Assembly: GCA_965205265.1 (NCBI GenBank)
Contig: CBDBGH010000003.1
Coordinates: 2,208,001 to 2,272,000, forward strand
DNA: 64,000 bases
From: Alphaproteobacteria bacterium
GTDB taxonomy: Bacteria > Pseudomonadota > Alphaproteobacteria > Bin95
Direction: 5' to 3'
The first letter of the stretch is position 1. Every line of letters begins with the position of its first letter. Both the position numbers and the translations under genes were made by a program. Positions 41,777 to 63,041 of the stretch are shown here, piece after piece. The notes under the pieces were generated by a model. That model did not search any database. It saw only the letters and a list, made by a program, of their open reading frames with translations, and had not been told where the DNA came from.

Positions 41777-42076
41777 ATGAGATCGGTTGGCATCAAGGCG
41801 CTGAACAGTCGGCTGAGCGAATATGTGCGCTTGGCGGCTTCCGGCGAGACGGTGCTGGTGACGGACCGCGACCGGGTGGTTGCGGAACTCGGCCCGCCGA
41901 GGGAGACCCGCAGCCCGATCCTCGCCGACGCATTTCTGGCCGATGCGGTGCGCAAGGGCTGGCTGACGCCGCCTCTCACCGTCAATAGAGACGGGAAGCC
42001 GCCGCCGCGGCCGCCTCCCGTCGCCACGCTGGCTGAAATCCTCGACGAACTGGATGCCGACAGAAGCGACCGGTGA
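41777..42076 (+). CDS. Phd/YefM-family antitoxin
   Basis: VGIKALNSRLSEYVRLAASGETVLVTDRDRVVAEL. Confidence 0.88.
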   Translation: MRSVGIKALNSRLSEYVRLAASGETVLVTDRDRVVAELGPPRETRSPILADAFLADAVRKGWLTPPLTVNRDGKPPPRPPPVATLAEILDELDADRSDR

Positions 42077-42474
42077 TCTACCTCGATACGTCCGTGATAC
42101 TGGCGCATCTCATGGCGGAGGATCGCAGCCCGCCGGAGTCGCTTTGGCGCGAGACGCTGACTTCCAGCAGATTGATGGAGGTCGAGACATGGAACCGGCT
42201 GCATGCGCGCGGGCTTGTCGACACACGCGGCGAACACGCCCGCGCATTGATCGCGCAGGTCGCAATGCTGGAACTCATCCAACCGGTAATATTGCGGGCG
42301 CTGGAGCCCTTCCCCGGTCCCCATTTCCCGCGCACGCTCGACGCGCTCCATCTGGCGTCATGCGCCTGGCTTCGCGACAACGGCCGGGCGGTCTTGCTCG
42401 CGAGCTACGACCGCCGGATGACCGCCACGGCCCGCGCGATGGATATCCCCGTTTTCGATCTGGATGCTTCGTGA
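42073..42474 (+). CDS. PIN-domain (VapC) toxin
   Basis: YLDTS, RTLDALHLAS, SYDRR. Confidence 0.9.
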   Translation: MIYLDTSVILAHLMAEDRSPPESLWRETLTSSRLMEVETWNRLHARGLVDTRGEHARALIAQVAMLELIQPVILRALEPFPGPHFPRTLDALHLASCAWLRDNGRAVLLASYDRRMTATARAMDIPVFDLDAS

Positions 42475-45276: not shown

Positions 45277-46659
45277 TCATGGTATTGCGCCGGCTCGTCG
45301 TTCCCAGAAGTCGTCGAAGCGATTGCTCTCGACGGCGCAGCGCAGGGCGATGATGGCGTTGGCGCCGTTGACGGTCCAGCGCATGCCTCCCTGCTTGAGG
45401 CGGGCGCCGACGATGTTCTTGCAGCCGCCCTCGACCACGCCGCTGGCCACGCACAAGCCCATCGCGCGGAACTTCGGGTAGTTCATGCGCTCGCGGTTGT
45501 TGGTGAAATACTCGGCGTTCTTGCGGGCGTTCTCGCAAGTTTCGGCATGGCCCTTGAGGGCGGCGATCACCTCGTCGACGCGGCCCTCGTCGAGTTCCTC
45601 GCGCCGCTTCCCGGCCCATCGCTCACCGATCTCGCTGCCGGTCCCGTAGATCGCCTTGGCTGCGTCGAACAGGTGGCCCTTGGCATGGAAGATGTCGACG
45701 ATCTGGATGGCGTCGGGGAAGTGCTCATCGGCGAAGTTCCAGATCCACGGCGCGCCGTCGCCGAGGATGACCCGGCGCTCGGCCGTGTCGAAGCCGCGGC
45801 GTTCGGCCTCGCGGATGACACGCCGGGCGAAGGGCGCGGGCTCGGGGTCGAACTCGCGGGTGGCGATGGATTCGATGGCGGCGTTGTAGGTGGCGGAGCC
45901 GGGGTCGCGCACCGGACGCCCCTCCCTGTCGACGGTCTCCGCCGACCACACGACGGCGAGCTTGGCCTCGCGGGTGCTGGCGGAGCCGTCGGGCTGCTTG
46001 CCCGCGCGGCCCTCGACCTCGGTCTTGCGCGCCGGCACGCCGGTGCCGTCGAGGCCGAGATAGAGGGTGGGGGCGTCGGACGGCTCGGGTTCGATCACGC
46101 GGCATTCGTCGCCTGCGATCTCTCGCCCGAGCGCCTCGGCATGGCGTTCGACCGTCTTCGGCGCGACAGCCAGGCCTGCCAGTTCGCGCAACAGGGCGCT
46201 GGAGCCCTCGAAGCTGGTACGGGCAGCAGCAACGCCGATCATGCGCAGCGCCGCCGGTGAGAGGAAAGTATCTTGCATGCCGAGGGTTCGATCACGCGGG
46301 CTGAAGCCGCGGTGGCAACGGTCGCAGTGATACCAGGCGCGCTCCAGCGTCAGAGGGCCGAGAGCGGTGGTGAAGGTCTTGGGCCGGCGGCCGGCGAAGC
46401 GCGCCTCGCCGCCGCACGCACACGACAGCCACGGTCCCCGGTTGTCGGAACGGTCGGCATTGAGCCTGTGGGCGACGGCCTGCCCCATGATCTGCAACGC
46501 AACCCGCCGCGCTTCGATCTCGATCGCCTGGAAGTCATCGACGACGCCCGCGCCGATCAGCCACTCGACCTCGGCCTCGACCTCCTCCGCGATCGCTGCG
46601 TCGAGACCCCCCTTTTTCCCGGCGCGGCCGGCTTGTCCGCGTCCAGCCTGGCATCGCAT
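45277..46659 (-). CDS. ISKra4-family transposase, probably reached by -1 frameshift
   Basis: CACG, CDRC, LDGTG, GDGAPWIW, DIFHA, SGVVEGGCK, GMRW. Confidence 0.88.
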   Translation of the reverse strand: MRCQAGRGQAGRAGKKGGLDAAIAEEVEAEVEWLIGAGVVDDFQAIEIEARRVALQIMGQAVAHRLNADRSDNRGPWLSCACGGEARFAGRRPKTFTTALGPLTLERAWYHCDRCHRGFSPRDRTLGMQDTFLSPAALRMIGVAAARTSFEGSSALLRELAGLAVAPKTVERHAEALGREIAGDECRVIEPEPSDAPTLYLGLDGTGVPARKTEVEGRAGKQPDGSASTREAKLAVVWSAETVDREGRPVRDPGSATYNAAIESIATREFDPEPAPFARRVIREAERRGFDTAERRVILGDGAPWIWNFADEHFPDAIQIVDIFHAKGHLFDAAKAIYGTGSEIGERWAGKRREELDEGRVDEVIAALKGHAETCENARKNAEYFTNNRERMNYPKFRAMGLCVASGVVEGGCKNIVGARLKQGGMRWTVNGANAIIALRCAVESNRFDDFWERRAGAIP

Positions 46660-46988: not shown

Positions 46989-47181
46989 CTGTCCCCAAAT
47001 ATAAGAAACAGATATCGTGGCGAAACCATGGCATTTCTCAACCTCGCAAAATCAGGACGTGCACCCCCATGCGGCGACCGGCTTGCAGTTGCGCACCCGG
47101 ACTTGCTATGGTGGAAGGTCAGCGGGCAGGCCAACGGGGCGCAGCCCGCTTGAGGGGAAACACGACCAAGGGAGTGCAAAC

Positions 47182-48216
47182 ATGAAGATCGTGCGTCTGG
47201 CATGCGGCGTCGCCGCAGCGGCCATGGTGGGAGGCGTCGCCATGTCCGCTTCCGCCGCAGATGAGGTGCTCTGGAACTTCTCCGCCTGGGGCAAGCCGCG
47301 CGCCTTTACCAAGGGCATCGATGCGATGAGCGAGTACCTTGCCGAGAAATCGGGCGGCAATTTCAAGCTCAAGATTCACTATGGCGAGGCGATCTCGCCC
47401 TCGAAAGAGAACATCGACGGCATCAAGATCGGCAGCCACGAAGCTGCGATGATGTGCACCTCCTACCATCCCGGCAAGAACCCGGCCGGCACGGTGCTGG
47501 ACCTGCCGTTCCTGCCCATCTCCGACCTGACGGTTCAGGCGAAGGTGCATGAGGACTTCATCCAGCATCCGGAGTTCAAGAAGGAGATGAAGCGCTGGAA
47601 CGCCATTCCGGTCTTCTCCGGCATCCTGCCGCAATACGAGGCGATGGGCGTCGGCGAGCCGGCCAGGAGCGCGGCGGACTTCAAGGGCCTGCGGGTCCGC
47701 GGCCTCGGCGGCATCGGCCAGTTCTTCGACAAGCTGGGCGCGGTGCCGACCACGGTGACGGCGTCGGAAAGCTACACGGCGCTCGAGCGCGGCACCATCC
47801 AGGTCATGACCTTCCCCTACAGCTACGCCTTCGGCGCCTACAGGCATCACGAAGTCGCCAAGTGGTACACGGAAGGCATGGCGCTGGGTTCGGTCTTCTG
47901 CCCGCAGATCATGAGCGTCACCGCCTACAACGCCCTTCCGGACGAATACCGGGCGCTGTTCAACGACGAGATGAAGTGGAACTCGTACAACACGCTGATC
48001 GACGCCTACAAGGAAGCCGACAAGAAGTGGATTCCGATCTACGAAAAGGCCATGGAGCGGGTGGAATTCACCAAGGAACAACGCGACGAGTTCGTGAAGA
48101 TCGGAGCGGAGCCGGTCTGGAACGAGTGGGTGGAAAACAACAAGGACAAGCTTCCTGCCCAGGAGCTCCTGGACTTCGTTCTCGAGCGCGCGGCGCACCA
48201 CAACAAGGAAGCGTAG
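47182..48216 (+). CDS. dctP: TRAP transporter solute-binding subunit
   Basis: Signal peptide, DLPFL, DFKGLRVR, YTALERG. Confidence 0.88.
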   Translation: MKIVRLACGVAAAAMVGGVAMSASAADEVLWNFSAWGKPRAFTKGIDAMSEYLAEKSGGNFKLKIHYGEAISPSKENIDGIKIGSHEAAMMCTSYHPGKNPAGTVLDLPFLPISDLTVQAKVHEDFIQHPEFKKEMKRWNAIPVFSGILPQYEAMGVGEPARSAADFKGLRVRGLGGIGQFFDKLGAVPTTVTASESYTALERGTIQVMTFPYSYAFGAYRHHEVAKWYTEGMALGSVFCPQIMSVTAYNALPDEYRALFNDEMKWNSYNTLIDAYKEADKKWIPIYEKAMERVEFTKEQRDEFVKIGAEPVWNEWVENNKDKLPAQELLDFVLERAAHHNKEA

Positions 48217-48241
48217 AGGCCTGAGTCCTCGTAAGTATGGG

Positions 48242-48281
48242 TGGGGCCGTTCCGTCGCGAACGGCCCCATTCTGTTGTTTG
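48242..48281 (+). terminator. Hairpin plus T-rich tail after dctP
   Basis: tggggccgttc-N6-gaacggcccca followed by ttctgttgttt. Confidence 0.65.
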
Positions 48282-48305
48282 CCGTAAGGGGAGGAAGCGG
48301 ATTCT

Positions 48306-48962
48306 ATGGCTCAGGCTGAGACGCAAAACGGGCGCCGGAACAGCGCCTTGTCGGGTATAGATCGCTTTTTCGGCCGCATAGAGGATGCCGTCACGCTTTT
48401 CGCGTCGGGGGCCATCTTCATATTGATGCTGTTCGTGGTCTGCGAAGTCATAGGCAGATATGTCTTTAACAGGCCGATCCCCGGAGCGATCGACTGGATC
48501 GAGGTCTATATGGCGATCTTCGCCTTCCTCCCCGCGGCCTACGCGCAGCGGCTGGGCGTGCATGTCCGCATGGAACTCGTCGTCGCCAAGATGCGCGGCA
48601 GACTGTTGTGGGGCGTTGAATGTTTCGCCGTCTGCATCGGTGTCGTTTATTGCCTCATCATCATCGACAAGAGTTGGGAGCATTTTCTGAGGTCCATTAT
48701 CGATGGAGACAGCACAATCGACGTGCAACTCCAGACCTGGCCCGGAAAATTGGTCGTTCCCGTCGCGCTCACACTGCTTTGCATACGGCTCATCATCCAG
48801 GTCTGGGGTTACGGCCGGCTGGCGCTCGATCCCGGCAAGGCTCCGCAGGCGGTGCCGATCATCATGGACGCCGCGGAGCATGCGAGGGCCGAGATCGAAG
48901 AGGTCATGGGACGAGAGAGCCAAGACCCGACGGACCCGCCCGACGGCGGCTCCAGGGCTTAA
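48306..48962 (+). CDS. dctQ: TRAP small permease
   Basis: Four TM helices, GRYVFNRPIPG, HVRME. Confidence 0.88.
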   Translation: MAQAETQNGRRNSALSGIDRFFGRIEDAVTLFASGAIFILMLFVVCEVIGRYVFNRPIPGAIDWIEVYMAIFAFLPAAYAQRLGVHVRMELVVAKMRGRLLWGVECFAVCIGVVYCLIIIDKSWEHFLRSIIDGDSTIDVQLQTWPGKLVVPVALTLLCIRLIIQVWGYGRLALDPGKAPQAVPIIMDAAEHARAEIEEVMGRESQDPTDPPDGGSRA

Positions 48963-48977
48963 AGGGGGGCGGTTATT

Positions 48978-50294
48978 ATGGATCCGTTCAATGCAGGTCT
49001 CGTATCGGTCGCGGTCATCATCGGGATGGTCGTGCTCGGCGTTCGCGTCGCCTACGCCTCCGGAATTGCCGGCGTTGTCGGGCTGATCATGCTGCGGGGT
49101 TACGACCCCGGCGCCGGCCTCGCGGGCCTGCTCGCCCATTCGCAGGTCAGCCATGTCACCCTCTCGGTGCTGCCGATGTTCATCCTCATCGGCTTCCTGG
49201 CCTTCTATGCCGGGCTGACCCGAAGCGCGTTCTACGCGGCGCGTTGCTGGCTCGGCACCCTGCCGGGCGGCCTCGCCGTCGCAACCGTTTTCGCGACCGC
49301 CGGCTTCGCTGCGGTGTCCGGCGCTTCGACGGCGACGGCCGCCGTGTTCAGCCGCGTCGCCATCCCCGAGATGCTGAAATACGGCTACGAGCGCAGCCTG
49401 GCTGCCGGCGTGGTCGCGGCGGGCGGCACGCTTGCATCGCTCATCCCGCCGAGCGCCATTCTGGTGATCTACGCCATCATCGTCGAGGAATCGGTCGGCG
49501 CCCTGCTGCTGGCGGGCTTCATACCGGGCGCGCTTTCGGCGGTCATCTATGCGGTGCTGATCGTCTTCCGCTGCAAGCTGAATCCCAAGCTGGGCGCGCC
49601 GGTCTCGGCGGTTCCGCTGGCCGAGAAGTTCCGCTCCCTGGCCGGCGCCTCGGGTATCTTCTTCGTGATCTTCATCATCCTGGGCGGCATCTACACGGGC
49701 GTGATGACCCCGACCGAGGTCGGCGGCGTCGCCGCATTCGTGATCTTCCTGATCGCGCTTGCGAAACGCAATATGAACCTCGCGAACCTGCGCGAATCGC
49801 TCATGGAGACCGCGAAGCTCACGGTCTTCATCTTCACGATCATCTGGTCGATCCTGATCTATGTGCGCTTCCTCGGCTTCTCGGGCCTGCCGGAGGCGTT
49901 CGCCAATTTCGTCGTCGGCCTCGACGTGCCGCCGCTCGTGGTGATGATCCTGATCCTGCTCGCCTATGTCGTGCTCGGCATGTTCATGGACGGCATCGGG
50001 ATGCTGCTCTTGACCCTGCCGGTCGTCTATCCGGCGGTCACGGCGCTCGGCTACGACCCGGTCTGGTTCGGCATCATCATCGTGAAGATGGTGGAGGTGT
50101 GCCTGGTCACGCCGCCCATCGGCCTCAACTGTTTCGTGGTCAACGGCGTGCGCCCGGACATTCCGCTGGAGGAAGTCTTCAAGGGAATCTGGCCGTTCTT
50201 CGTGGCCGACATCATCACGGTCGCCGTGCTCGTCGCCTTCCCCGGCATCGTGCTCTGGCTGCCGCGATTGATGATCCAGAACATCACCGCATAG
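48978..50294 (+). CDS. dctM: TRAP large permease
   Basis: LPMFIL, GTLASLIPPS, TPTE, TPPIGLN. Confidence 0.93.
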   Translation: MDPFNAGLVSVAVIIGMVVLGVRVAYASGIAGVVGLIMLRGYDPGAGLAGLLAHSQVSHVTLSVLPMFILIGFLAFYAGLTRSAFYAARCWLGTLPGGLAVATVFATAGFAAVSGASTATAAVFSRVAIPEMLKYGYERSLAAGVVAAGGTLASLIPPSAILVIYAIIVEESVGALLLAGFIPGALSAVIYAVLIVFRCKLNPKLGAPVSAVPLAEKFRSLAGASGIFFVIFIILGGIYTGVMTPTEVGGVAAFVIFLIALAKRNMNLANLRESLMETAKLTVFIFTIIWSILIYVRFLGFSGLPEAFANFVVGLDVPPLVVMILILLAYVVLGMFMDGIGMLLLTLPVVYPAVTALGYDPVWFGIIIVKMVEVCLVTPPIGLNCFVVNGVRPDIPLEEVFKGIWPFFVADIITVAVLVAFPGIVLWLPRLMIQNITA

Positions 50295-50318
50295 AGCGGG
50301 GCCGGCGCGGTTTTCCGT

Positions 50319-51875
50319 TCAGGAAAGCCGCGCCGCCAGCCCCATCGGCTCGTCGCGGAAGAGAGCCGCCGGCATTTCGTGAAGATCGTCGGCAATGCGG
50401 GGCCGGAAGGCCATTCGCGCCAGCACGTCGCGTTCGAGATCGACGCCCGGCGCAATTTCGACGACCACCGGCCCGGCCTCCCCGATGCGGAAGACGCAGC
50501 GCTCCGTCACCGCCATGATCGTTTGCCCGCGCGCAAGACCGGCGCGGGCGTTGAAGCTGATCTGCTCGACCGCTTCGACAAATTTAACCGGATCGCCATC
50601 CTGCCGGATGTCGAGACGACCGTCCGCGGCGCGGATATCGGATTCTCCCGCAGAGAACTGACCGCAGAAGACGACCCGCTTCGCGCCCTGCGTCACATTG
50701 AAGAAGCCGCCTATGCCGGGAATGCGCGTACTGAGCTTCGACACATTGACATTGCCGGCGGCATCGAGCTCCGCCATGCCGACGAAGGTTATGTCCAGCC
50801 CGCCGCCGTCGTAGAAGTCGAACTGGTAGGTGTTGTCGATGACCGAACTCGGATTGACCGCCGCGCCGAAGGAAAGCCCATAGGCCGGATAGCCGCCGGT
50901 TGCGCCCGACTCCACCGTGAGCGTGAAGGCGTCGCCGCAGCCCTCTTCGCCCGCCACCGTCGCCACATATTCGGGCGCGCCCACGCCGAGATTGACCACA
51001 TCGCCCCGGCGGAGCTCCATCGCCGCGCGCCGCCCGATCACCTTCTTGACCGACAGCGGCTGCGGCGGACGCGCGCTCAGGTCCGCGCGCACCTCGCCGG
51101 AGAACACCGGGTCGTAGGCCGTTGCGAAGGTCTGCGGGTGGTTCTCCGGCCGCGCGACGACGACCCGGTCCACGAGATGGCCGGGAATCACGACCTTTCT
51201 CGGGTCGAGCGAGCCGCGCTCCGCAATGCGCTCGACCTGCGCCAGCACGGCGCCGCCGGAATTCCGCACCGCCTGCGCGAAGCTGGGCCCTTGGAAGGTT
51301 CCGATCTCGCGCTCCATGGTGATATTGCCGTCCGGGTCCGCGGTCGTGCCTCTCAGCAGGCCGGCATCGAGCCGCATGGAGGGATAGAACAACCAGTCCC
51401 GCCCGCTGAGCCGCACGCGCTCCACATAGTCCTCGACCGTGCGCGCGTTCACCTTGCTGCCGCCATGTTCGGGATCGACGAAGGTGCCGAGGCCGACATG
51501 GGTCACGAGGCCCGGCCGTCCCGCCGCAATCTCCCGGTAGAGCTGGACGATGACGCCGAGCGGCAGCAGGTAGCCTTCGATCTCGTTGTCGATCAGCCGG
51601 CGCTGGAGCATCCGGTTCAGGTTGAGATAGGAGGTCATGAGCCGGCGGATCATCCCGTCATGGCGCAGGCGGTCGAGGCCGCGCCCGCGCGTGTCTCCGG
51701 AGCCGGTGGAGGCGATGACGGTCAGCCCACCGGGCTCGCCCGTCTCCAGGAACCGCGCCTCCAGGGCCAGCAGCAGCTCTTCCGGGCAGACCGAGCCGAC
51801 GAATCCGTCCACGCCCAGCACCGCCCCCGAAGGCACCAGCGCCGCCGCCTCGGCAGCCGTGACGATCTTGCTCAT
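50319..51875 (-). CDS. Acyl-CoA:acetate CoA transferase (YdiF/propionate CoA-transferase-like)
   Basis: VGLGTFVDP, VNLGVG, TVESG, GNVNVS, TERCVF. Confidence 0.9.
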   Translation of the reverse strand: MSKIVTAAEAAALVPSGAVLGVDGFVGSVCPEELLLALEARFLETGEPGGLTVIASTGSGDTRGRGLDRLRHDGMIRRLMTSYLNLNRMLQRRLIDNEIEGYLLPLGVIVQLYREIAAGRPGLVTHVGLGTFVDPEHGGSKVNARTVEDYVERVRLSGRDWLFYPSMRLDAGLLRGTTADPDGNITMEREIGTFQGPSFAQAVRNSGGAVLAQVERIAERGSLDPRKVVIPGHLVDRVVVARPENHPQTFATAYDPVFSGEVRADLSARPPQPLSVKKVIGRRAAMELRRGDVVNLGVGAPEYVATVAGEEGCGDAFTLTVESGATGGYPAYGLSFGAAVNPSSVIDNTYQFDFYDGGGLDITFVGMAELDAAGNVNVSKLSTRIPGIGGFFNVTQGAKRVVFCGQFSAGESDIRAADGRLDIRQDGDPVKFVEAVEQISFNARAGLARGQTIMAVTERCVFRIGEAGPVVVEIAPGVDLERDVLARMAFRPRIADDLHEMPAALFRDEPMGLAARLS

Positions 51876-51941
51876 GGTTGCATCTGCATCGATTCAATCT
51901 TCCAGGGAGCCGGGGCGCTACTCCGGAGCGCAGTTCCCCGC

Positions 51942-52367
51942 TCAGTCACCATCGCGGAACGGGTTGACGATTTGCAAATCGTCGATCCGCTGGCCGTGCT
52001 GGAGGTCCTCCGTAAAGAGTACGCCCGCGCCAGCACTCAACGCCGCCTCGACGATCAGCGAGTCCCAATAGGACAGCCGCATCGAACGGCTCCGGCGGAT
52101 GGCGGCGTTCACCGTCTCGGGATGGACCGGCTGGACGCGGAACCGGCTGAATGCATCGACGGCCTGCGCTGCCGTTTCCAAGCTCATCGATTCGGCAAAT
52201 TTCCGTGTCACCGTCACATAGAACTCGCCGAGTACCTGTATGCTGAAAACGATGCAGTCCCTCTCTCTGCGCAGGAGTTCCTGCGCACGCGTTCGCTTTT
52301 CCGGCGCATCCGCATCGAACAGATAGACCAGTACATTCGTATCGACGAATTTCCATTCAACGCTCAT
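51942..52367 (-). CDS. PIN-domain (VapC) toxin
   Basis: FVDTNVLVY, QVLGEFY, SYWDSLIV, TEDLQHG. Confidence 0.92.
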   Translation of the reverse strand: MSVEWKFVDTNVLVYLFDADAPEKRTRAQELLRRERDCIVFSIQVLGEFYVTVTRKFAESMSLETAAQAVDAFSRFRVQPVHPETVNAAIRRSRSMRLSYWDSLIVEAALSAGAGVLFTEDLQHGQRIDDLQIVNPFRDGD

Positions 52368-52584
52368 GAAGATCGCTGCGCGTCCAGACCGCGCCACCAC
52401 GCCGGGAATCGCTCGACCGCGACAAAGCCAGTAGCGAATCGCAGGCATCGGCGCGTCGGCGACCGATACCCGCATAAGCATGCAGATATTCCCGCACGAC
52501 CGCATTCACGGACGTTCTTTCCCGAATTGCCCGAATCCGGGCGTGCTCGAGAACATCGTCGTCGATGGAGATCGTCAGATTCAT
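52357..52584 (-). CDS. RHH-type antitoxin
   Basis: MNLTISIDDDVL..TSVNAVVREYL..WTRSDLHER. Confidence 0.85.
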   Translation of the reverse strand: MNLTISIDDDVLEHARIRAIRERTSVNAVVREYLHAYAGIGRRRADACDSLLALSRSSDSRRGGAVWTRSDLHER

Positions 52585-52598
52585 CTTCGAGCTCCTTT

Positions 52599-52630
52599 TA
52601 CACGGATTCTCAATTACACGGGATCCGTGT
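52599..52630. promoter_or_regulatory. Probable autoregulatory operator of the vapBC operon
   Basis: TACACGG twice and palindrome ACACGG-gat-CCGTGT just upstream of the antitoxin. Confidence 0.55.
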
Positions 52631-52650
52631 GCAAATCGACTGGAATAATT

Positions 52651-53448
52651 TCACTTGGCTGTATTCGGAAACCCCTGCGCGGACCCGGCGGTGAAGCCGA
52701 CCCGGCCGAGCGGGCCGAAATCCGCGAGGACCTGCGCGCCGGGCCGGATGGCGGCGACGCCGGTGCAGGTGCCCGTGTTCACGCGGTCGCCGGCCCGGAG
52801 CCCGTCGCCGCGCTCGCGCAGATGGTTGGCGAGCCATAAGAGCACCAGCGCCGGGTCGCCGAGCGCGAGCGCCCCGGTTCCCTCGGCCAGCGCTTCGCCA
52901 TCCACCGAGAGCGACACGCCGGCATCCCGCAGGTCCCGGTCCCGCCAGTCGGGCCGCAACTCGCCCTCGACGAAGGCGATATTGGCGCCGAAGTCGGCCG
53001 TCACGCCTTCCCGCCCGAGCCCGGCCAGACCGCCCTCGAAGCGCGATCCGACGACCTCTATGCCGCCGGCGACACCCATGACCGCCGCCATGACGTGTTC
53101 GCGTTCGAAGGGCGCCTCGCGCGGCGGCAGGCCCTCGCCCATCACGAAGACGAACTCGCGCTCCACGGCCGGCGCATGCGCCGCGAAGATGGGCACGTCC
53201 GCCCCGCTCTCGAAGCAGAAAGGTTCGAGCAGCGCACCGGCACCGGGCCGGTCGGTGCCGAGCTTGCGCCGTGCTTCGGCGCTGGTCGATCCGACCTTCC
53301 AGCCGGAGCGGGAACAACCCGACGCCCGCACCGCCCTTTCCTGGACCCGGTAGGCGTCGTCCAGACCGGAGAGGTCCTGCCTCGCTTCCGCCTCGACCAG
53401 GGTTCCGGCCCGCCGGGCCTCCCACAAGCGCCCTGCCAGATCGGCCAT
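52651..53448 (-). CDS. 2-keto-4-pentenoate hydratase / FAH family
   Basis: AYRVQ, GWKVG, IEVVGSR, WLANHL..GLRAGD, TGT. Confidence 0.85.
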   Translation of the reverse strand: MADLAGRLWEARRAGTLVEAEARQDLSGLDDAYRVQERAVRASGCSRSGWKVGSTSAEARRKLGTDRPGAGALLEPFCFESGADVPIFAAHAPAVEREFVFVMGEGLPPREAPFEREHVMAAVMGVAGGIEVVGSRFEGGLAGLGREGVTADFGANIAFVEGELRPDWRDRDLRDAGVSLSVDGEALAEGTGALALGDPALVLLWLANHLRERGDGLRAGDRVNTGTCTGVAAIRPGAQVLADFGPLGRVGFTAGSAQGFPNTAK

Positions 53449-53598
53449 CCGGTGCCTGCCTTTCTTCCGCTTCGACGAATTTGGCAGCAACCCTATCCCG
53501 CCCGACTGCCGTGCGAAAGGATGTCCCCGTTCCGCCCGGGGTCTTTCCCCGCGCCTGAATCTCTTTAGGCTTCCCCGGCACGACGAAGGGGGACGGCG

Positions 53599-54447
53599 AT
53601 GAAGCTCGGCATTTTCAGCTACAACACGGAATACGGGACCCGGCCCGACGAGCTGGCGAAGGCCGCCGAGGAGCGGGGCTTCGAATCCCTCTGGGTCGGC
53701 GAGCACACCCACATTCCGGCGAGCCGCGAGACGCCCTATCCGGGCGGCGATCCCCTGCCGAAACCCTACTACCACATGGCCGACCCGTTCGTGTCGCTGA
53801 TGGCGGCGGCAGGCGCGACCTCCACCATCAAGGTCGGCACGGCCGTCTGCCTCGTCATCGAGCGCGACCCCATCGTGCTGGCGAAGGAGGCGGCGACGCT
53901 CGACTACCTCTCGGGCGGGCGCCTGCTGCTCGGCATAGGCGGCGGCTGGAACCGGGAGGAGATGGCCAATCACGGCACCGACTTCGCGCGCCGCTGGCAG
54001 GTGCTGCGGGAGCGCGTCGAGGCGATGAAGGCGATCTGGACGGAAGAGGAGGCGAGCTATGAAGGCGAGTTCGTCCGCTTCGAGCGCATCGTCTCCTATC
54101 CGAAGCCCGTCCAGCAGCCGCATCCGCCGGTCATCTATGGCGGCGCCACACCGCTCGGGCTGAAGCGCACCGTGCGCTATTGCGACGGCTGGATGCCGAT
54201 CGACGTGCTGCTGGCCGACTTCCCCGCCGCCGTCGCCGAGCTCGACCGGCAGGCCGAGGAAGCCGGGCGCGACCCGGCGTCCATCTCCGTCTCGGTTTTC
54301 GCCTTCAACGGCGCCAATGAGGAGGCGCTCAGGCGGCTCGCGGAGAACCCGCGCATCGAACGCGCCGTGCTGGTGGCGCCCCGCTACACGGAGAAGGCGC
54401 TGCCGTTCCTCGACGCGTTCGGCGCGCTCATCCCCGCATTGGCCTGA
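53599..54447 (+). CDS. LLM-class (F420-dependent-type) oxidoreductase
   Basis: GFESLWVGEHTH, DPFVSL, LSGGRLLLGIGGGWN.EE, PKPVQ. Confidence 0.88.
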   Translation: MKLGIFSYNTEYGTRPDELAKAAEERGFESLWVGEHTHIPASRETPYPGGDPLPKPYYHMADPFVSLMAAAGATSTIKVGTAVCLVIERDPIVLAKEAATLDYLSGGRLLLGIGGGWNREEMANHGTDFARRWQVLRERVEAMKAIWTEEEASYEGEFVRFERIVSYPKPVQQPHPPVIYGGATPLGLKRTVRYCDGWMPIDVLLADFPAAVAELDRQAEEAGRDPASISVSVFAFNGANEEALRRLAENPRIERAVLVAPRYTEKALPFLDAFGALIPALA

Positions 54448-56071
54448 GGCCGGCCGCGAGCTCGCGCAGGCGGTATTTCTGGATCTTCCCGGACGCCGTG
54501 CGCGGCATGGCGTCGATCAATTCCAAGCGTTCCGGCAGGTAAGGCTTCGCCAGCCGGCGCTCCAGCAGGAAGCCGCACATCGCCTCGAAGGTCAGCGCGT
54601 CCGCCTCCGGGTGGAGCGTGACGAAGGCGCAGGCGCGCTCGCCCAGGCGCTCGTCCGGCATGGCGACGATGGCGCAGTCCGCCACGCCCGGATGGCGGTA
54701 AAGCAGCTCCTCCACCTCGACCACGGGAATGTTCTCGCCGCCACGGATGATGATGTCCTTCGACCGTCCGGAGATCCGGATATAGCCGTCGGCGTCCATC
54801 CGGGCGTTGTCCCCGGTCTCGAACCAGCCGTCCTCGTCGGTGTCATAGCGCTCCGGGCGCTTCAGGTAGCCGACGAACTGGCCCGCGCCGCGCACCTGCA
54901 GGCGCCCTTCCTCCTCGTCCGGAACCGGCAATCCGTCCTCCCCGACCACGCGCACTTCCAGGCAGGAAACCGCGCATCCGTCCGTGCCGAACACGCGCTC
55001 CGGCGGGTCCGATTTCCGCGTGCCCGAGCCGAAGCCGTTCTCGGTCATGCCCCAGCCGGAATGGACGAAGCAGCCGAGGCGCTCGCTCGCCCGCTCCACC
55101 AGCACGCGCGGGATCGGCGCGCCGGCGGAGACGAAGGTTTCCAGCGTCGAGATGTCGTAGCGGTCCAGCACCGGGCTGTTCGTGAGATCGGCCAGGAAGG
55201 GCGTCGCCCCCATGGTGAAGGTCACCGCCTCGTCCCGGATCAGCCTCAGTGCCGCCTCCGGGTCCCAGATGTCGAGATAGCAGGTCTTGGCGCCGAGCAC
55301 GGGCGAGAGAATAAGGCCGTACATGAAGCCCGTCTGGTGGGCGAGCGGCGAGCCCATCAGGATCGCCGTGTCCTCGCCGAGCCCGATGCGCTCCACATAG
55401 CTCATCACCATGGCGAGCAGCGTGTTGGAGGTGTGCATCACGCCTTTGGGCTCGCCGGTCGTGCCGGAGGTGTAGAGAAGCTGGATCACCTCGTCCGGCT
55501 CCGGCCTGCCGGCCGCGAACACCGCTCCGGCGTCCACGTCCCGCTCCAGCCCGGGGTCCAGCAGCGCCGCCTCGAAATTGTCGCCGATGACGAACAGGTG
55601 CTCCAGCTTCGGCAGGGACGGGCAGAGCTCCCGCGCCATCGCCGCATGGTCGTGCCCCCGGAAGACGCCCGGCGTCACCAGCGCCTTCGCGTCCGCGAAA
55701 TCGAGCATGAAGGAGAGCTCGCGCTCGCGGAAGATCGGCATCAGCGGATTGGAGCAGACGCCGAGGCGCAGGCAGGCGATATGCAGGCAGTAGAACTGCC
55801 ACCAGTTGGGAAGCTGGAAGGCGAGCACATCCCCGCGCCCGAGCCCGTGCGCATGGAGGCCGAGCGCCATCCTGTCGGACAGCCGCCTGAGCTGGCGCCA
55901 GGAGAGGGTCGTCTCGCCGCCGTCCCCCACCCGCCGGGCGACCACCGCGACGGCGTCCGGCTTGCGCGCGACCGCCTCGTCGAAATAGTCGAGCAGGGTG
56001 CGGTCGCGCCAGTGGCCTTCCGCGCGGTGCGTCTCGCCCCTCCAGACGGGCAGGATCGGATCGAAGATCAT
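54428..56071 (-). CDS. AMP-dependent acyl-CoA ligase (cyclohexanecarboxylate-CoA ligase-like)
   Basis: YTSGTTGEPKG, WGMTE, TGD, RGGENI, SGKIQK. Confidence 0.88.
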   Translation of the reverse strand: MIFDPILPVWRGETHRAEGHWRDRTLLDYFDEAVARKPDAVAVVARRVGDGGETTLSWRQLRRLSDRMALGLHAHGLGRGDVLAFQLPNWWQFYCLHIACLRLGVCSNPLMPIFRERELSFMLDFADAKALVTPGVFRGHDHAAMARELCPSLPKLEHLFVIGDNFEAALLDPGLERDVDAGAVFAAGRPEPDEVIQLLYTSGTTGEPKGVMHTSNTLLAMVMSYVERIGLGEDTAILMGSPLAHQTGFMYGLILSPVLGAKTCYLDIWDPEAALRLIRDEAVTFTMGATPFLADLTNSPVLDRYDISTLETFVSAGAPIPRVLVERASERLGCFVHSGWGMTENGFGSGTRKSDPPERVFGTDGCAVSCLEVRVVGEDGLPVPDEEEGRLQVRGAGQFVGYLKRPERYDTDEDGWFETGDNARMDADGYIRISGRSKDIIIRGGENIPVVEVEELLYRHPGVADCAIVAMPDERLGERACAFVTLHPEADALTFEAMCGFLLERRLAKPYLPERLELIDAMPRTASGKIQKYRLRELAAGLRPMRG

Positions 56072-56184: not shown

Positions 56185-56260
<76 letters not shown>

Positions 56261-56288: not shown

Positions 56289-56600
56289 TCAGGCGTCCGT
56301 CAGCACGTGGATCGTCCGGCTGGCGAGCAGGTCCTTCACCTTCGCCGCATAGGCGGCCATATGGGCGGACGCGCCATGCGCGCGGAGCGCCTCCAGGCTC
56401 GCCCATTTCTCCACCACGACGAAGGTGTCCTCGCCGTATTTCGTCTGGATCGCGCCCGCTTCGGCGTCCACGGCCGCGCCGTATTCGATGCAGCCGTCCT
56501 CCGCATGCACCGCCGGCACATTGGCGTTGAAGGCTTCCAGCACCTCGGCGCGGCAGCCGGGCTTGGCCTGGATGACGGCGATGACATGGACCCTGGACAT
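56289..56600 (-). CDS. Antibiotic biosynthesis monooxygenase (ABM)-domain protein
   Basis: AEDGCIEY, VVEKWASLEAL.AH..HM. Confidence 0.85.
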   Translation of the reverse strand: MSRVHVIAVIQAKPGCRAEVLEAFNANVPAVHAEDGCIEYGAAVDAEAGAIQTKYGEDTFVVVEKWASLEALRAHGASAHMAAYAAKVKDLLASRTIHVLTDA

Positions 56601-56715
56601 TCGTCTTCTCCTCTCTCCGCCGCCCTCGCGGCAACGGTCGTCGGGGCGTTATTGACCGCTTTCGGCCGCCGGGGTCAAGATTGGGACAGTTCCCGGTTCC
56701 CGGAGGCCATGTCCG

Positions 56716-58860
56716 ATGCCCGAAGCGCGCGCCCTCTGCTCTTCCTGCGACATCTACTGCCAGGTCACGGTCGAGACCGCAGGCGGAGAGGTCGCCCGGG
56801 TCAAGGCGATCGACCCGAGGCCGGGCCGGGCCAATATCTGCATGAAGGGCGTGCATGCGCCCGCCGGCTTCGCCCATCCCGACCGGGTGCTGCATCCGCT
56901 CCGCCGCAAGGGGCCGCGCGGGTCCGGGGAATGGGAACGGGTCGGCTGGGACGAGGCGCTGGACGACATCGCCGAACGCCTTCACCGGGTCGTGGACCGC
57001 TACGGGCCGGAAGGGTTCGCGGTCTCGACGAGCTCCTGGAACACGCAGACCGACCAGGGCATGTGCCGGCGCTTCATGAACCTTGTCGGCTCGCCGAACT
57101 GGATTTCCGGCGTGGCGCTCTGCGCCGGCAATACGGCCGCCGTCAACCGGCTGGTCTATGGCTGGTTCCCCTATCCGGATTTCACGAAAACGAACTGCAT
57201 CGTGCTCTTCGGGCACAACCCGAAGCCGCATTCCTGGACGCCGGAATACAACGCCATCCGCCGCGCGCAGGAACGCGGGGCCAGGCTGATCGTGCTGGAC
57301 CCGCGCCGGTCGGAAAACGCCGGGCTTGCCGACATCTGGCTGCCGCTCAAGGTCGGCACCGACGCCGCCATGTGTTTCGGCTGGCTCAAGGTCATCATGG
57401 ACGAGGGCCTCTGGGACCGGGATTTCGTCAGGCGCTGGACGGCGGGGTTCGACGAGCTCCGGGCGCGCGTGGACGAGTTTCCGCTGGACCGGGTCGCGGA
57501 GATCACCGGCGTCGCGCCGGACCGGATCGCCGAGGCCGCGCGGCTCTATGCACAGTCAGGCCCGGCGGTCATCCCCTGGTCGCCGATCACCGACCAGCAG
57601 CGCAACTCGACCTCCGCCATCCGCCTGCAGGCGATCCTGCGCGCGATCTGCGGCAATCTCGACGTGCCGGGCGGCGAGGTGCTGCACGGCTTCCACCCGC
57701 GCATCGTGCCGGAGACGGACCTGGAGTTTCACGACGCGCTGCCCGAGGCGCAGAAGGCGAAGCAGCTCGGGTCCGATACGCACCCCGTTTTCACCTATCG
57801 CGGCGCGGCGCCGCTCGAAGAGCCGACCTTGCGCGTCTGGGGCCGGCGCTACGCCAACATCGTGTCGGGCTGCTACATGGCCACGCCCTCGGCCGTGTTC
57901 CGCGCCATGGCGGACGGCGAGCCCTATCCGGTCAAGGCCTTCTTCGCGCTCGGCAACAACACGCTGCTGAGCTTCGCCAACATGCAGCTGATTCACAGGG
58001 CGCTGCTGAACCAGGACCTGCTCGTCGCCTTCGAGCACATGAAGACGCCGACGGCCGCGCTCTCGGACTACATCCTGCCGGGCGATGCCTGGACGGAGCG
58101 CAAGGCGCTGGCGGACGGCTTCGGCTGGACCGCCATCTGCCGCACGTCGCAGCAGGCCGTCGAGCCGCCCGGCGAAGCGCGCAGCGTTTACGATTTCTGG
58201 CGCGGCCTCGCAGTCCGGTTCGGCCTCGGCAATCATTTCCCGTGGGAGACGGCCGACGCCCTGCTGGACCACCGCGTCGCGGGCCTCGGCATGGATTTCG
58301 ACAGCTTCGCCCGGGAGCACGCCGCGCATACGGACGGCCTGCGGTTCCGGAAATACGAACGGACGGGTTTCGCGACGCCTTCCGGCAAGGTCGAGCTTTC
58401 CTCCTCTGTGCTCGCCGGGTTCGGCTTCGACCCCCTGCCCTACTGGCGCGAGGAGCCGGCGGGACCGGAGGACATGCCGCTTCGCCTCTTCACGGGGCTA
58501 CGCGAGGACGCCTATTTCCAGACCGGCCACCGCCATATCGCGGCGCTCAGGGCGCGCGCGCCCGAGCCGCTGCTGTTCCTGCATCCCGAGGATGCGATGG
58601 AGGCCGGCATCGCCGACGGCGAGCCCGCGGTCGCCCGGACGGCTCAGGGGCAGGTCCGCATGAAGGCGGCGGTTCGCGACGACATGCAGAAGGGCCTGGT
58701 GCGGATACCGCATGGCTGGTGGCTGCCGGAAGTCGGGCTGGAGAGCGCCTGGGAGATGGCCGACGCCCAGCTCTGCCCCGACGACGAGGACTTCCTCGAC
58801 CGCGAACAGGGCATCCCCCACTTCAAGGGCATCCCCTGCCGGGTCGCGCCGGCGGCTTAG
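56716..58860 (+). CDS. Mo/W-bis-PGD enzyme, acetylene hydratase-like
   Basis: CSSCDIYC..CMKG 4Fe-4S motif; RRFMNLVGSPNW..LCAGNT; no Tat signal. Confidence 0.85.
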   Translation: MPEARALCSSCDIYCQVTVETAGGEVARVKAIDPRPGRANICMKGVHAPAGFAHPDRVLHPLRRKGPRGSGEWERVGWDEALDDIAERLHRVVDRYGPEGFAVSTSSWNTQTDQGMCRRFMNLVGSPNWISGVALCAGNTAAVNRLVYGWFPYPDFTKTNCIVLFGHNPKPHSWTPEYNAIRRAQERGARLIVLDPRRSENAGLADIWLPLKVGTDAAMCFGWLKVIMDEGLWDRDFVRRWTAGFDELRARVDEFPLDRVAEITGVAPDRIAEAARLYAQSGPAVIPWSPITDQQRNSTSAIRLQAILRAICGNLDVPGGEVLHGFHPRIVPETDLEFHDALPEAQKAKQLGSDTHPVFTYRGAAPLEEPTLRVWGRRYANIVSGCYMATPSAVFRAMADGEPYPVKAFFALGNNTLLSFANMQLIHRALLNQDLLVAFEHMKTPTAALSDYILPGDAWTERKALADGFGWTAICRTSQQAVEPPGEARSVYDFWRGLAVRFGLGNHFPWETADALLDHRVAGLGMDFDSFAREHAAHTDGLRFRKYERTGFATPSGKVELSSSVLAGFGFDPLPYWREEPAGPEDMPLRLFTGLREDAYFQTGHRHIAALRARAPEPLLFLHPEDAMEAGIADGEPAVARTAQGQVRMKAAVRDDMQKGLVRIPHGWWLPEVGLESAWEMADAQLCPDDEDFLDREQGIPHFKGIPCRVAPAA

Positions 58861-59723: not shown

Positions 59724-59830
59724 AGTTACATTCCCATCCGAGCCCGAAATCGCCGCCCCGGCCCGCGAGCCGGGTCCATCCACAACTGTTTCGGTCCGGT
59801 GGAAAGGCCGGGAGATGGACCCCGGATCGT
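59724..59830. repeat. 107-bp target duplication of IS1634 copy 4 (second copy at 61747-61853)
   Basis: agttacattccc...ccccggatcgt on both sides. Confidence 0.95.
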
Positions 59831-61746
59831 CCTGACTTCGACGGTTGATTCGCATAAGTAGTTGATATTGCCTGGTTCTCATTTCGGCTAGGCACTACAT
59901 CCGGCATTTCTTCGAGCCGTGCTTCGTCGACGGTCAGGCGAGTTGATACGGGGTGATCGTCAGGGGCAGCCCCATGGTTGCGTAAATCTGCTCCGCCGCC
60001 GGTGTCGGCTTCGAGGGGATGACGTAGCGGTTGCCCGATTGCCGACAGCGCAGCAGGGAGCACTGGCGGTGGACGAGGGCGGAGCGGATGACCTCCGGGG
60101 ACATCCGCCGCTTCTGGATGGCGACGCGGTACGCAAGGTGTCGAACGCAGGCGAAGGCCAGGAAGGCGATGGCGATGTGAGCGCGGATCCGGTCCGGGTT
60201 CCAGTGCCAGATGGGACGTATCTTCAGGTCGTGTTTGGTGATCCGGAAGCTCTCCTCGACCTGCCAGAGCCCCTGGTAGTGAGCCATCACTTCGGTGACG
60301 CGCGCGTCGCGCAGATTGGTGATGACGCCGGTGAGCCCGTCCCATCGTGCGGCCTCGGCGATCTTCTCCGGGTTCACCGTGAGCCGTGCGTCGCCCTCGA
60401 CGGCGATGAAGCGCTTCGCCCCGTGATTGGAGAGCAGTTCCCTGGGATTGTCGCTGCGGGCCAGCCTGTCGAGCAGGCGTTCCACCTGATGGCGGCGCTC
60501 GTGCGCGTCCTTGCGTGCGCGCTGGGGGCAGAAGACGACGATCAGGCGACGGCCCTTGTACTCCCACTCGCCGACCCGGCGGTCCTGTGAGCCCTCCAGC
60601 GGGGCATAGGTCCCGGGGTCGAGAACCTGCCCCAGCAGCGCGAGCGGCAGCTTGCGCAGCCGCGCGCCGACGACATACTCGCCGCCGATGGCGTCCATGG
60701 CGTCGAGGTTGTCGGCGCTCAGCATGCCCCGGTCGGCCACGCATACCGTGCGCTCCACCTGGTGGCGGCGCTGCATGTCCTGCAGGACCGGGACCATGCT
60801 GTGTCCCTCGTAGGTGGCGCCGGGGAAGACCTCGTAGCTGATCGGCAGCCCTTCGCGCGTCACCATCAGCGCCAGCAGAACCTGCGAGTCCTTGTGTTTG
60901 CCGTCCTTGCTGAAGCCGTGCTGGCGAAGCTCGTCCTCGGCGGCCGTCTCGAAGTAGAGCGTGGTGCAATCGAAGAAGAGGATCGCGACCGGCTCCGGCA
61001 GCAGCGACCGGCTCGCCTCGCCGACGCGCGTGCGCAGTCGCTCGATCACCGTCGCGTCGAGCTGATCCATCATCCGGTAGACCTTCTCGAGCGGAAGACT
61101 CACGCCGAAGTCCTCCTCGAGCCGGCGCACGCTGCCCCGCTTGCTGTCGGGGTTGGCTACCCGCGCCATCACCACATGGAACAGCGCGTCATGGGAGGCC
61201 CGGTAGCGCGAGCGCGGCAGCAGCGCGTCGAGGCCCAGCAGCCGGTAGATCTCGCCATAGACCTCGTGGATGCCTGTGATCAGGCGCTGCTCCTCTTCAA
61301 GCTGCTTGAGGTCGACCGGGAGTTCCTCCTTGCCGTCCCCCCGGCGGCCGACACGGATCGCCTGCTCAGCGATCTTCTCGGGCGCAAACAATGCCGGCTG
61401 ACGCTCGTCCTCCAGCTTCGCCTTGACGTACTCGCCGAGCTGCCTCAGGCGCTCGAGCTCGTCCTCGTCCATGGCCACGCCGACATGGCGGACGATGCGC
61501 TGTCGGACCTTGCCGCCGTCGCGCACGGCCTCGACGATCTGGACCGAGCGTCGCGGGCTGTTGGGGGAGGTCTTGATGCGCACGAACATGGGGGGAGTGT
61601 AGCGCGTGGCGGAGGCATTGACAGTCTCAAAGATTTACTAGGCACTACAACGCAGCTTGACCGCACCGCAACTGCCAACTCATTGGCTTTACTGAAAACT
61701 CCAGACGCGAGATCGGTCAGAAGTCAGCCCAACCGTCGAAGTCAGG
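59831..61746 (-). mobile_element. IS1634-family element copy 4 (1916 bp)
   Basis: Same IRs and ORF as the other copies; 107-bp DR. Confidence 0.95.
59934..61589 (-). CDS. IS1634-family transposase, 551 aa
   Basis: Translation identical to copies 2 and 3. Confidence 0.93.
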   Translation of the reverse strand: MFVRIKTSPNSPRRSVQIVEAVRDGGKVRQRIVRHVGVAMDEDELERLRQLGEYVKAKLEDERQPALFAPEKIAEQAIRVGRRGDGKEELPVDLKQLEEEQRLITGIHEVYGEIYRLLGLDALLPRSRYRASHDALFHVVMARVANPDSKRGSVRRLEEDFGVSLPLEKVYRMMDQLDATVIERLRTRVGEASRSLLPEPVAILFFDCTTLYFETAAEDELRQHGFSKDGKHKDSQVLLALMVTREGLPISYEVFPGATYEGHSMVPVLQDMQRRHQVERTVCVADRGMLSADNLDAMDAIGGEYVVGARLRKLPLALLGQVLDPGTYAPLEGSQDRRVGEWEYKGRRLIVVFCPQRARKDAHERRHQVERLLDRLARSDNPRELLSNHGAKRFIAVEGDARLTVNPEKIAEAARWDGLTGVITNLRDARVTEVMAHYQGLWQVEESFRITKHDLKIRPIWHWNPDRIRAHIAIAFLAFACVRHLAYRVAIQKRRMSPEVIRSALVHRQCSLLRCRQSGNRYVIPSKPTPAAEQIYATMGLPLTITPYQLA

Positions 61747-61773
61747 AGTTACATTCCCATCCGAGCCCGAAAT

Positions 61774-61887: not shown

Positions 61888-63010
61888 CTACCCTCCCTCC
61901 GCCGACCGGTCCGCCCCCACCCTTGCGGCCAGGGCGGCGCTCAGGAAGTCGTCGATATTGCCGTCGAGCACGCCCTGGGCGTTGCCCTTTTCGACGCCGG
62001 TGCGCAGGTCCTTCACCATCTGGTAGGGCTGGAGCACATAGGAGCGGATCTGGTTGCCCCAGCCGATGTCGGCCTTCGCCGCCTGCTCGGCCGCGGCTTC
62101 GGCCTCGCGCCGCTGGAGTTCGTGCTCATAGAGCCTGGCCTTCAGCATCGCCATGGCCGTTGCCCGGTTGCGGTGCTGCGAGCGGTCGTTCTGGCACTGG
62201 ACGACGATGTTCGTCGGCAGATGCGTGATCCGGACGGCGCTCTCGGTCTTGTTGACATGCTGCCCGCCGGCGCCAGAGGCGCGATAGACATCCACCCGGA
62301 GCTCGCTCTCGTCGATCTCGACCTCGATCCGGTCGTCCACCACCGGATAGACCCAGGCCGAGGCGAAGCTGGTATGGCGGCGCGACTGGCTGTCGAAGGG
62401 CGAGATGCGCACCAGGCGATGGACGCCGCTCTCGGTCTTCAGCCAGCCGTATGCGTTCTCGCCCTTTATGCGCACGGAGGCGGACTTGATGCCAGCCTCC
62501 TCGCCCGGGCTTTCCTCCAGCCATTCCAGCTTGTAGCCGCCGGCGTCGGCCCAGCGGACATACATGCGCAGCAGCATCTCGGCCCAGTCCTGCGCCTCCG
62601 TGCCGCCCGCACCGGCATTGACCTCCAGATAGCAGTCATTGCCGTCGGCCTCGCCGGACAGCAGGCTTTCCAGCCTGCGGCGCGCGGCCCGGTCCCGAAT
62701 CGATTCGAGTTCGGCTTCGGCTTCCGCTTGCGCGCCCTCGTCCTCTTCCGCCTCGCCGAGCTCGTAAAGCGTGACCGCGTCTTCCAGCGCGCCTTCGAGC
62801 GCGCGGTAGCCTTCCAGCCCGCCGGCCAGCCGCGTCCGTTCGCGCATCACCTCCTGGGCGCGCGCCGGGTCGTTCCAGAGTTCGGGCGCTTCGGCCTCGG
62901 CATTCAGCGCCTCAAGGCGCGCCGTGGATGCGTCCCAGTCAAAGATGCCTCCGGATGAGGGCAAGGCTGTCGCGAATATCGTCCACAAGGGCCTGCGCTT
63001 CGGCACGCAT
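61888..63010 (-). CDS. prfB: Peptide chain release factor 2 with programmed +1 frameshift
   Basis: MRAEAQ..RRHL, then CTT TGA C at 62944-62938 with GGAGG just upstream; SPF and GGQ motifs. Confidence 0.96.
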
Positions 63011-63041
63011 CGAACGGTCTCCAACGAATCCGGAAGTCGGG

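Follow-up and report, generated by a model that had tools for sequence, protein, structure and literature searches.

The genome of an alphaproteobacterium (Alphaproteobacteria bacterium, assembly GCA_965205265.1) contains, within the 64,000 bp of contig CBDBGH010000003.1 that were analysed here as a whole (positions 2,208,001 to 2,272,000, in the following called the window), a gene coding for a molybdenum- or tungsten-dependent enzyme belonging to the bis-MGD (bis-molybdopterin guanine dinucleotide) type that resembles acetylene hydratase (AH). As given by an initial annotation made from the sequence alone, this AH-like gene is an open reading frame (ORF) at 56716..58860 on the + strand coding for 714 amino acids (in the following the query). 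A ribosome-binding site GGAGG, read directly from the sequence, lies at 56702..56706 (+), 9 nt before the ATG, and the G + C content at third codon positions (GC3) of 0.90 is like that of other genes in the window. The surrounding order is an acyl-CoA ligase gene (-), a tRNA-Phe gene (+), a gene for an ABM-domain protein (-), the AH-like gene (+), a spacer of about 970 bp, an insertion sequence (IS) of 1918 bp (-), prfB (-) and a penicillin-binding protein gene (-). With the ABM-domain gene, the tRNA gene and the IS as neighbours and no partner subunit nearby, the AH-like gene stands alone, as had been supposed. A promoter and terminator scan near the gene gave nothing exceeding the shuffled expectation. 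In comparison with its counterpart in the related locus L006, the protein (88% identity) is better conserved than the DNA (82% identity), and the gene is under purifying selection.

Relation to acetylene hydratase

The query contains the Pfam domains PF00384 (124 bits) and PF01568 (59 bits), both above cutoff, and therefore belongs to the bis-MGD (MopB, DMSO-reductase) superfamily. PF04879 did not reach an E-value of 0.001 against the protein, no NCBIfam model reached its cutoff (the top one, formate dehydrogenase alpha, scoring 256 bits with a cutoff of 666), and a comparison with the ESM Atlas returned generic molybdopterin clusters only. Amongst solved structures, the top match in HMMER is 2e7z, the AH of Pelobacter (Syntrophotalea) acetylenicus, with 678 bits and an E-value of 1e-202 over residues 6-705, and thus over the full length, the next being a thiosulfate/polysulfide reductase (PsrA/PhsA, 2vpw) with 216 bits. 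An AlphaFold2 model computed from an 81-sequence alignment has a mean predicted local distance difference test score (pLDDT) of 95.5 and is aligned by Foldseek to 2e7z with template modelling (TM) scores of 0.96/0.95, a root mean square deviation of 1.8 A and 44% identity, the remaining bis-MGD structures having TM-scores near 0.7-0.82 (next-best about 0.80-0.82; 0.82 for 2vpw). The Pfam domains, the score to 2e7z and the Foldseek TM-scores thus bear out the initial description as an acetylene-hydratase-like bis-MGD/[4Fe-4S] protein, and the AH fold together with the full-length best match places the query in the AH subfamily.

Query and Pelobacter AH are alike in length and fold, and both lack a partner subunit as well as a signal for twin-arginine translocation (Tat). 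The absence of the latter from the query had been predicted, and a Tat motif is indeed impossible because the iron-sulphur (FeS) motif already starts at residue 8. PsrA/PhsA, the next-best solved relative, which has the superfamily and the Cys ligand in common with the query, is by contrast exported by the Tat system and forms part of a complex in the membrane.

When proteins of the data set are ranked by their bit scores to 2e7z, the query (678) comes after P0279 (696) and before P0122 (646), P0276 from Bradyrhizobium sp. I71 (626), P0350 from Gordonibacter (621), P0124 (612) and P0123 (607). Members of the clade with an Asp next to the second FeS cysteine (CxxCD) hence span 607-696 bits, as compared to 482 bits for P0125, the nearest representative without this Asp. 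These scores are consistent with Pelobacter AH being a member of the Asp clade that is not especially close to the query. Pelobacter AH itself was found neither among the best 120 matches of the protein searches nor among 150 representatives, and P0121-P0124, P0279 and P0276, which were considered as candidates for it, turned out not to be Pelobacter AH.

Active site and substrate pocket

Residues were mapped by the HMMER alignment to 2e7z, where the chain index + 3 gives the literature numbering, and their conservation was counted in 121 close homologous sequences, with the same picture in the loci retrieved from other genomes. The motifs quoted in the initial annotation are all found at the residues given there (C8-S-S-C11-D12-I-Y-C15, C42-M-K44-G, RRFMNLVGSPNWISGVALC136-A137-GNT, HSW174, IPW288 and GDAW459). 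C8, C11, C15 and C42 correspond to Cys9, Cys12, Cys16 and Cys46 of AH and make up a complete four-Cys [4Fe-4S] motif. The codons of C8-x-x-C11-D12-x-x-C15, comprising three of these ligands and the catalytic Asp, lie at 56737..56760 (+), and those of C42-M-K44 at 56839..56847 (+). K44 is equivalent to Lys48 of AH, which sits between the cluster and the MGD, and both C42 and K44 are present in 121/121 homologs. The equivalence of D12 with Asp13 and of the metal ligand C136 with Cys141, which the earlier proposal had set as its own test, also holds in the alignment; D12 is found in 118 of the 121 sequences, the other three having gaps, and C136 in all of them. An Asp next to the FeS Cys is found in just 6/129 representatives outside the AH clade, and a passage in PMC12096430 calls the Asp13 following the second FeS Cys specific for the AH subfamily.

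The hydrophobic ring of AH, which we take to comprise the six positions Ile14, Ile113, Ile142, Trp179, Trp293 and Trp472, is only partly retained in the query: I13, W174 and W288 are kept, whereas W108, A137 and F469 replace Ile113, Ile142 and Trp472, respectively. An excerpt of PMC7970554 names Ile113, Ile142 and three Trp as the surroundings of the AH active site. Of the Trp motifs that had been regarded as conserved, those containing W174 (Trp179) and W288 (Trp293) stand, but W459 of the GDAW motif is equivalent to Trp462 and not to the pocket residue Trp472; W174, W288 and W459 are each found in 121/121 close homologs. While the replacement of Ile142 by A137 had been recognised correctly, the exchanges of Ile113 for W108 and of Trp472 for F469, with a W471 two residues further on, had been missed. 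Outside the ring, Arg606 and Phe611 of AH have equivalents in the query and Met140 is replaced by L135. The codon of W108 lies at 57037..57039 (+; W in 118/121), the codons of C136 and A137 at 57121..57126 (+; at position 137 A in 109, S in 9 and M in 3 sequences), and those of F469-G-W471 at 58120..58128 (+; at position 469 F in 99, Y in 8, W in 8, L in 5 and I in 1, with W471 in 120/121).

Far from being a peculiarity of one gene, as the initial annotation had assumed, A137 is the norm in a large clade, where it is paired with W108, and is, on the basis of the aligned sequences, a clade signature. Of the 270 CxxCD sequences compared, 189 carry a small residue (A, S or G) at position 137, and all but one of them (188) also have W108, which is in addition paired with M (12), L (4) or F (1) at position 137. 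However, the three sequences with a small residue at position 108 and Met at position 137 form a single clade, and a test for covariation of the two positions has no statistical power because there are only four phylogenetically independent contrasts. According to standard side-chain volumes, Trp plus Ala is about equal to Ile plus Ile. The enlarged pocket that had been deduced from A137 therefore does not follow, since in the same proteins the much larger Trp108 replaces Ile113, and as far as residue comparisons can tell the pocket is remodelled rather than simply enlarged.

Phylogeny and distribution

In a FastTree phylogeny that joins the query and 24 loci with the 60 top-ranking full-length representatives at 50% identity (85 rows in all), the 28 CxxCD rows form one clade with a support of 100 against 57 other representatives. 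The query is thus located inside the CxxCD clade, in support of the initial annotation, in trees that were computed without Pelobacter AH. A second tree of 69 rows, which were hand-picked from about 390 proteins and 55 loci leaving out fragments and most near-duplicates, was rooted on 8 representatives lacking the Asp and divides the subfamily into three groups: A with 7 rows (Bradyrhizobium sp. I71, Nevskia soli, Sporichthyaceae), B with 8 rows (Bacteroidota and a bioreactor protein) and C with 46 rows, consisting of a group containing Gordonibacter and the query clade of 33. Supports for A, B and C are 100, 91 and 100 in FastTree and 100, 82 and 100 by SH-aLRT in IQ-TREE.

The protein search yielded 2355 matches among 8000 scored candidates, the best 120 of which have 62-95% identity and lengths of 680-817 amino acids. 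Sources among the matches listed include Paraburkholderia, Cupriavidus necator, Bradyrhizobium, Hydrogenophaga, Variovorax, Mameliella, Sulfitobacter, Albimonas and metagenome-assembled genomes (MAGs) of Myxococcota. Contigs from one genome per species provided 55 loci, the nearest of which (88-97% identity) are from uncultured Alphaproteobacteria. Together with the PaaA/B/C/E-like, TauD, ccm and photolyase genes in the window, these alphaproteobacterial MAGs agree with the view that the host is an alphaproteobacterium that looks aerobic. The presence of an AH-like gene in an aerobe, which the initial annotation had highlighted, is ordinary because hundreds of close homologs exist in aerobic genera. 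The query clade is very large, mostly found in aerobic Proteobacteria and biochemically uncharacterised, and the literature search found no published description of it.

The only plasmid match to the query was the protein WP_120661552.1 of Rhodococcus opacus DSM 44186 with 41.6% identity. Both this organism and Bradyrhizobium sp. I71 presumably grow on acetylene, and strain I71 is reportedly an acetylenotroph whose putative AH gene lies next to transfer elements (Akob et al. 2022). The R. opacus protein is 62% identical to the I71 protein P0276, 79% to P0281 and 43% to the query. Like the query, the R. opacus and I71 proteins come from aerobes and have the CxxCD motif, the Cys ligand and the equivalents of Trp179 and Trp293. 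However, they share only 41-43% identity with it and belong to a separate clade with a support of 100, namely clade A as opposed to clade C of the query. The clade A proteins have Leu at position 142 and Trp at position 472 and lack the segment containing Ile113, a signature that is also present in the R. opacus protein. As to the acetylene-using aerobes, excerpts of PMC7858054 describe Rhodococcus spp. as aerobic acetylenotrophs and the R. opacus enzyme as Mo-dependent, report a close AH homolog in R. opacus with matches of only about 22-29% in R. rhodochrous, R. zopfii and Gordonia, and name the Pelobacter enzyme as the sole characterised AH.

On the R. opacus plasmid pRop44186_a (L056, 1-20196), the clade A gene is located amid IS630 and IS5 transposase genes, three integrase genes, fdxA, moeZ and a gene for a ferritin-like protein, and this island looks like a mobile acetylene-hydratase module. 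Both the R. opacus gene and the query gene are flanked by genes of mobile elements, but fdxA, moeZ and the ferritin-like gene occur in the R. opacus island only, with nothing of that kind in the window. A plasmid-borne member of the query clade is found in L016 (plasmid pVarWS11_iso of Variovorax sp. WS11), where an enoyl-CoA hydratase gene comes immediately after it and an acyl-CoA ligase gene at a greater distance.

A survey of the MopB superfamily reads, in a passage of PMC10100899, the whole 'AH family' as acetylenotrophy. The split between clades A and C calls for caution against such a reading.

Genomic context in the window

The gene for the ABM-domain protein (103 amino acids, PF03992) at 56289..56600 (-) is divergently oriented 115 bp upstream of the AH-like gene and occupies the same position in the related loci L001-L007 and L033. 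Between this pair and the acyl-CoA ligase gene at 54428..56071 (-), which is cyclohexanecarboxylate-CoA-ligase-like with a score of 692 bits, below the cutoff of 792, lies the gene for tRNA-Phe(GAA) at 56185..56260 (+). On the other side, the IS at 59830..61747 (-), with its transposase ORF at 59934..61589 (PF01609), separates the AH-like gene from prfB at 61888..63024 (-), a conserved downstream neighbour in relatives. Since the order of the ABM-domain gene, the AH-like gene and prfB is retained in related genomes, and the IS interval 59830-61747 has no match in the related loci that were aligned, the AH-like gene is stably maintained on the chromosome in this lineage.

The IS, which codes for a DDE transposase of 551 amino acids, is present in three full copies at 59830-61747, 31811-33728 and 33794-35710 that are 100% identical over 1917-1918 nt, the latter two being arranged in tandem 65 bp apart, and in a fourth copy (13833-15259 and 18038-18548) that an insertion of about 2.8 kb has seemingly broken in two. 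The identity of the copies points to very recent transposition.

Upstream of the AH-like gene, the interval 47017-56071 contains genes for a TRAP transporter (DctP/Q/M), a FadX-like CoA-transferase, an F420-type LLM oxidoreductase and the cyclohexanecarboxylate-CoA-ligase-like protein, and constitutes a carboxylic-acid uptake/activation cluster from which the AH-like gene is separated by tRNA-Phe. Amongst the ORFs of the window that were scanned, there is neither a gene for molybdenum cofactor (Moco) biosynthesis nor one for a molybdate or tungstate transporter, the latter being what the initial annotation had advised to look for. Rfam identified tRNA only and no riboswitch in the whole window. 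Toxin-antitoxin-type genes (MazE-like, PemK/MazF-like and two with PIN domains) are scattered at 5944-6243, 35705-36159, 42073-42474 and 51942-52505, and three ORFs of 499, 460 and 311 amino acids at 16351-17850 (-), 45277-46659 (-) and 10315-11250 (+) have a third-position GC of 0.71-0.89 and no Pfam match at an E-value of 1e-5.

Genomic context in other genomes

For 21 of the 55 loci, chosen for long flanks and less than 77% identity to the query, as many as three genes to either side of the AH-like gene were scanned, which amounts to 124 neighbouring proteins. A regulator of the HxlR family is found in 7 of the 21 loci (L013, L015, L024, L040, L041, L043 and L044), an enoyl-CoA hydratase in 6, an AMP-dependent ligase and an SDR protein in 5 each, a DSBA-like protein in 3, an acyl-CoA dehydrogenase, a type III CoA-transferase, a Flavodoxin_2 and a CMD protein in 2 each, and a thiolase and an aldehyde dehydrogenase in 1 each. 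No Moco gene was encountered in these 21 loci, and a ferredoxin-type electron-transfer subunit is encoded neither among the 124 neighbours nor in the window. In L040 and L041 the HxlR gene overlaps the start of the AH-like gene in an operon-like manner, and L015 has the HxlR gene first, then an enoyl-CoA hydratase gene and then the AH-like gene. The recurrence of HxlR and of genes for CoA-ester metabolism hints that the substrate could be a reactive compound or an acid instead of a gas, but, being counted within these 21 loci, is a lead only.

An acyl-CoA ligase was also considered as a conserved partner, being encoded within 8 kb in 15 loci, but was rejected since these ligases are not orthologous: outside the near relatives of the window they are 28-34% identical to the ligase in the window and match other NCBIfam types. 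Paraburkholderia sp. C35 has two AH-like copies on one contig (L020, 8001-10169, and L043, 7974-10166), one of which is divided by a frameshift or stop into two ORFs (543 and 161 amino acids) and located beside genes for TetR, Flavodoxin_2, a binding protein and a ligase.

Possible function

Established are the fold, the domains for cofactor binding, the ligands of the FeS cluster and of the metal, the catalytic Asp, the Lys and the status as a single cytoplasmic subunit. The query is, by a somewhat better than even judgement, a bis-MGD Mo/W enzyme of the AH subfamily that probably acts as a hydratase on a substrate that is perhaps not acetylene. As the AH fold, the [4Fe-4S] site, the Cys ligand and the Asp and Lys that flank the metal-bound water in AH are shared, an AH-like mode of action is most likely. 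With the metal centre in the reduced Mo(IV) or W(IV) state, its bound water and the carboxylate of the Asp would serve to hydrate a small unsaturated substrate; no net redox change would be involved, and the FeS cluster would feed no electron chain. Since three of the six positions of the hydrophobic ring differ and the query clade stands apart from the R. opacus and I71 proteins, the substrate may well be one other than acetylene. In favour of a different substrate are also the Leu at position 142 and the Trp at position 472 which the latter proteins keep, and the lower activity of the Ile-to-Ala pocket variant of AH, which the initial annotation had mentioned and for which a review reports that much activity is lost (PMC6013536). 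With respect to the catalytic Asp, the D13A variant of AH is nearly inactive while D13E is unaffected (PMC6013536). The mechanism of AH is still disputed (PMC6013536 and a passage of PMC12096430), and the only AH isolated and characterised comes from a strict anaerobe (PMC6013536 and a passage of PMC7858054).

Several points weigh against this interpretation. The high TM-score to 2e7z is partly expected, as this structure had already been seen by AlphaFold, and the placement of Pelobacter AH, which was left out of the trees, is inferred from bit scores only. In the window, the AH-like gene has next to it neither an aldehyde dehydrogenase gene nor any other gene for handling a product, and AH is sensitive to oxygen (PMC6013536), which is awkward with an aerobic host. 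Catechol dehydroxylases, which according to a passage of PMC7028382 are closer to AH than other characterised enzymes outside the subfamily, are redox enzymes, and therefore fold and family alone do not prove hydratase chemistry. Finally, Trp108 may fill the space freed by Ala137, so that the pocket and acetylene as substrate may be retained.

This last point leads to a genuine, probably Mo-dependent AH of aerobes which converts acetylene to acetaldehyde in a pocket where Trp108/Ala137 compensate for the Ile/Ile pair. No catalytic residue is exchanged, the backbone hardly differs from that of 2e7z, Trp at position 108 accompanies the small residue at position 137 in all but one of the 189 sequences with a summed volume of about that of two Ile, and some sources name the clade members P0043, P0332 and P0351 'acetylene hydratase'. 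We nevertheless consider such a function unlikely, albeit with an appreciable chance, given that the R. opacus and I71 proteins belong to clade A, that members of the query clade occur in many genera which are not known as acetylene users, that an aldehyde dehydrogenase is close by in a single scanned locus and absent from the window, that the Trp108/Ala137 pairing amounts to four independent pairs, and that Trp472 is changed as well. Just as doubtful is a redox function, e.g., as a soluble reductase or dehydroxylase of catechol, a quinone-related or another oxygenated compound, with the [4Fe-4S] cluster being fed by free ferredoxin or flavodoxin. HxlR, Flavodoxin_2, CMD and DSBA-like families, which occur as neighbours (the Flavodoxin_2 proteins being of the quinone-reductase type), are electrophile- or quinone-related, and in the lineage of the window the divergent neighbour is monooxygenase-like (ABM). 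The bis-MGD catechol dehydroxylases of Eggerthella and Gordonibacter moreover share with the query the close relationship to AH within the family. However, these enzymes are set apart by their descriptions, as they need a separate FeS subunit (an excerpt of PMC11887054) and act with membrane partners as well (passages of PMC11887054 and PMC11574389), whereas no FeS subunit is co-encoded with AH-like genes in the 21 loci or the window; in addition, an Asp beside the FeS Cys is the defining feature of the AH clade, in trees computed without reference dehydroxylases, and is rare among the other representatives.

That Ala137 enlarges the pocket for larger alkynes or nitriles, as originally proposed, appears quite improbable: A137 does align with Ile142, whose exchange for Ala makes AH less active on acetylene, but Ile113 is at the same time replaced by the much larger Trp, so that a net enlargement does not follow, and AH itself does not convert ethylene, cyanide, nitriles, isonitriles or acetylene derivatives (PMC6013536). 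A decaying or functionless gene copy, for which the adjoining active IS and the split relative in Paraburkholderia sp. C35 could be adduced, is highly improbable in view of the intact reading frame, its GC3, the retention of all catalytic residues, the protein being more conserved than the DNA, and the conserved synteny. As for the putative hydratase, it is conceivable, if rather unlikely, that the query clade represents a new class of non-redox Mo hydratases in aerobes that is under the control of electrophile-sensing regulators of the HxlR type in many genomes and acts not on gaseous acetylene but on activated alkynes, allenes or similarly reactive unsaturated compounds, either free or as CoA esters. 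If so, the products would feed into ligase, enoyl-CoA hydratase and thiolase steps, and Mo enzymes would be credited with a detoxifying or catabolic reaction that has so far not been reported for them.

Implications

The subfamily to which the AH-like gene belongs is a known one, but the branch in question, with its very many members, is uncharacterised. The gene represents a sister clade in oxygen-respiring bacteria which is far larger and in which the catalytic Asp, Cys and Lys are kept while the substrate ring is different, and which would supply an enzyme from oxygen-respiring hosts for mechanistic work. Once its function is known, it would become clear whether surveys of genomes and metagenomes may take 'AH-like' genes as a sign of acetylene use, and a new Mo-dependent hydration or reduction could come to light.

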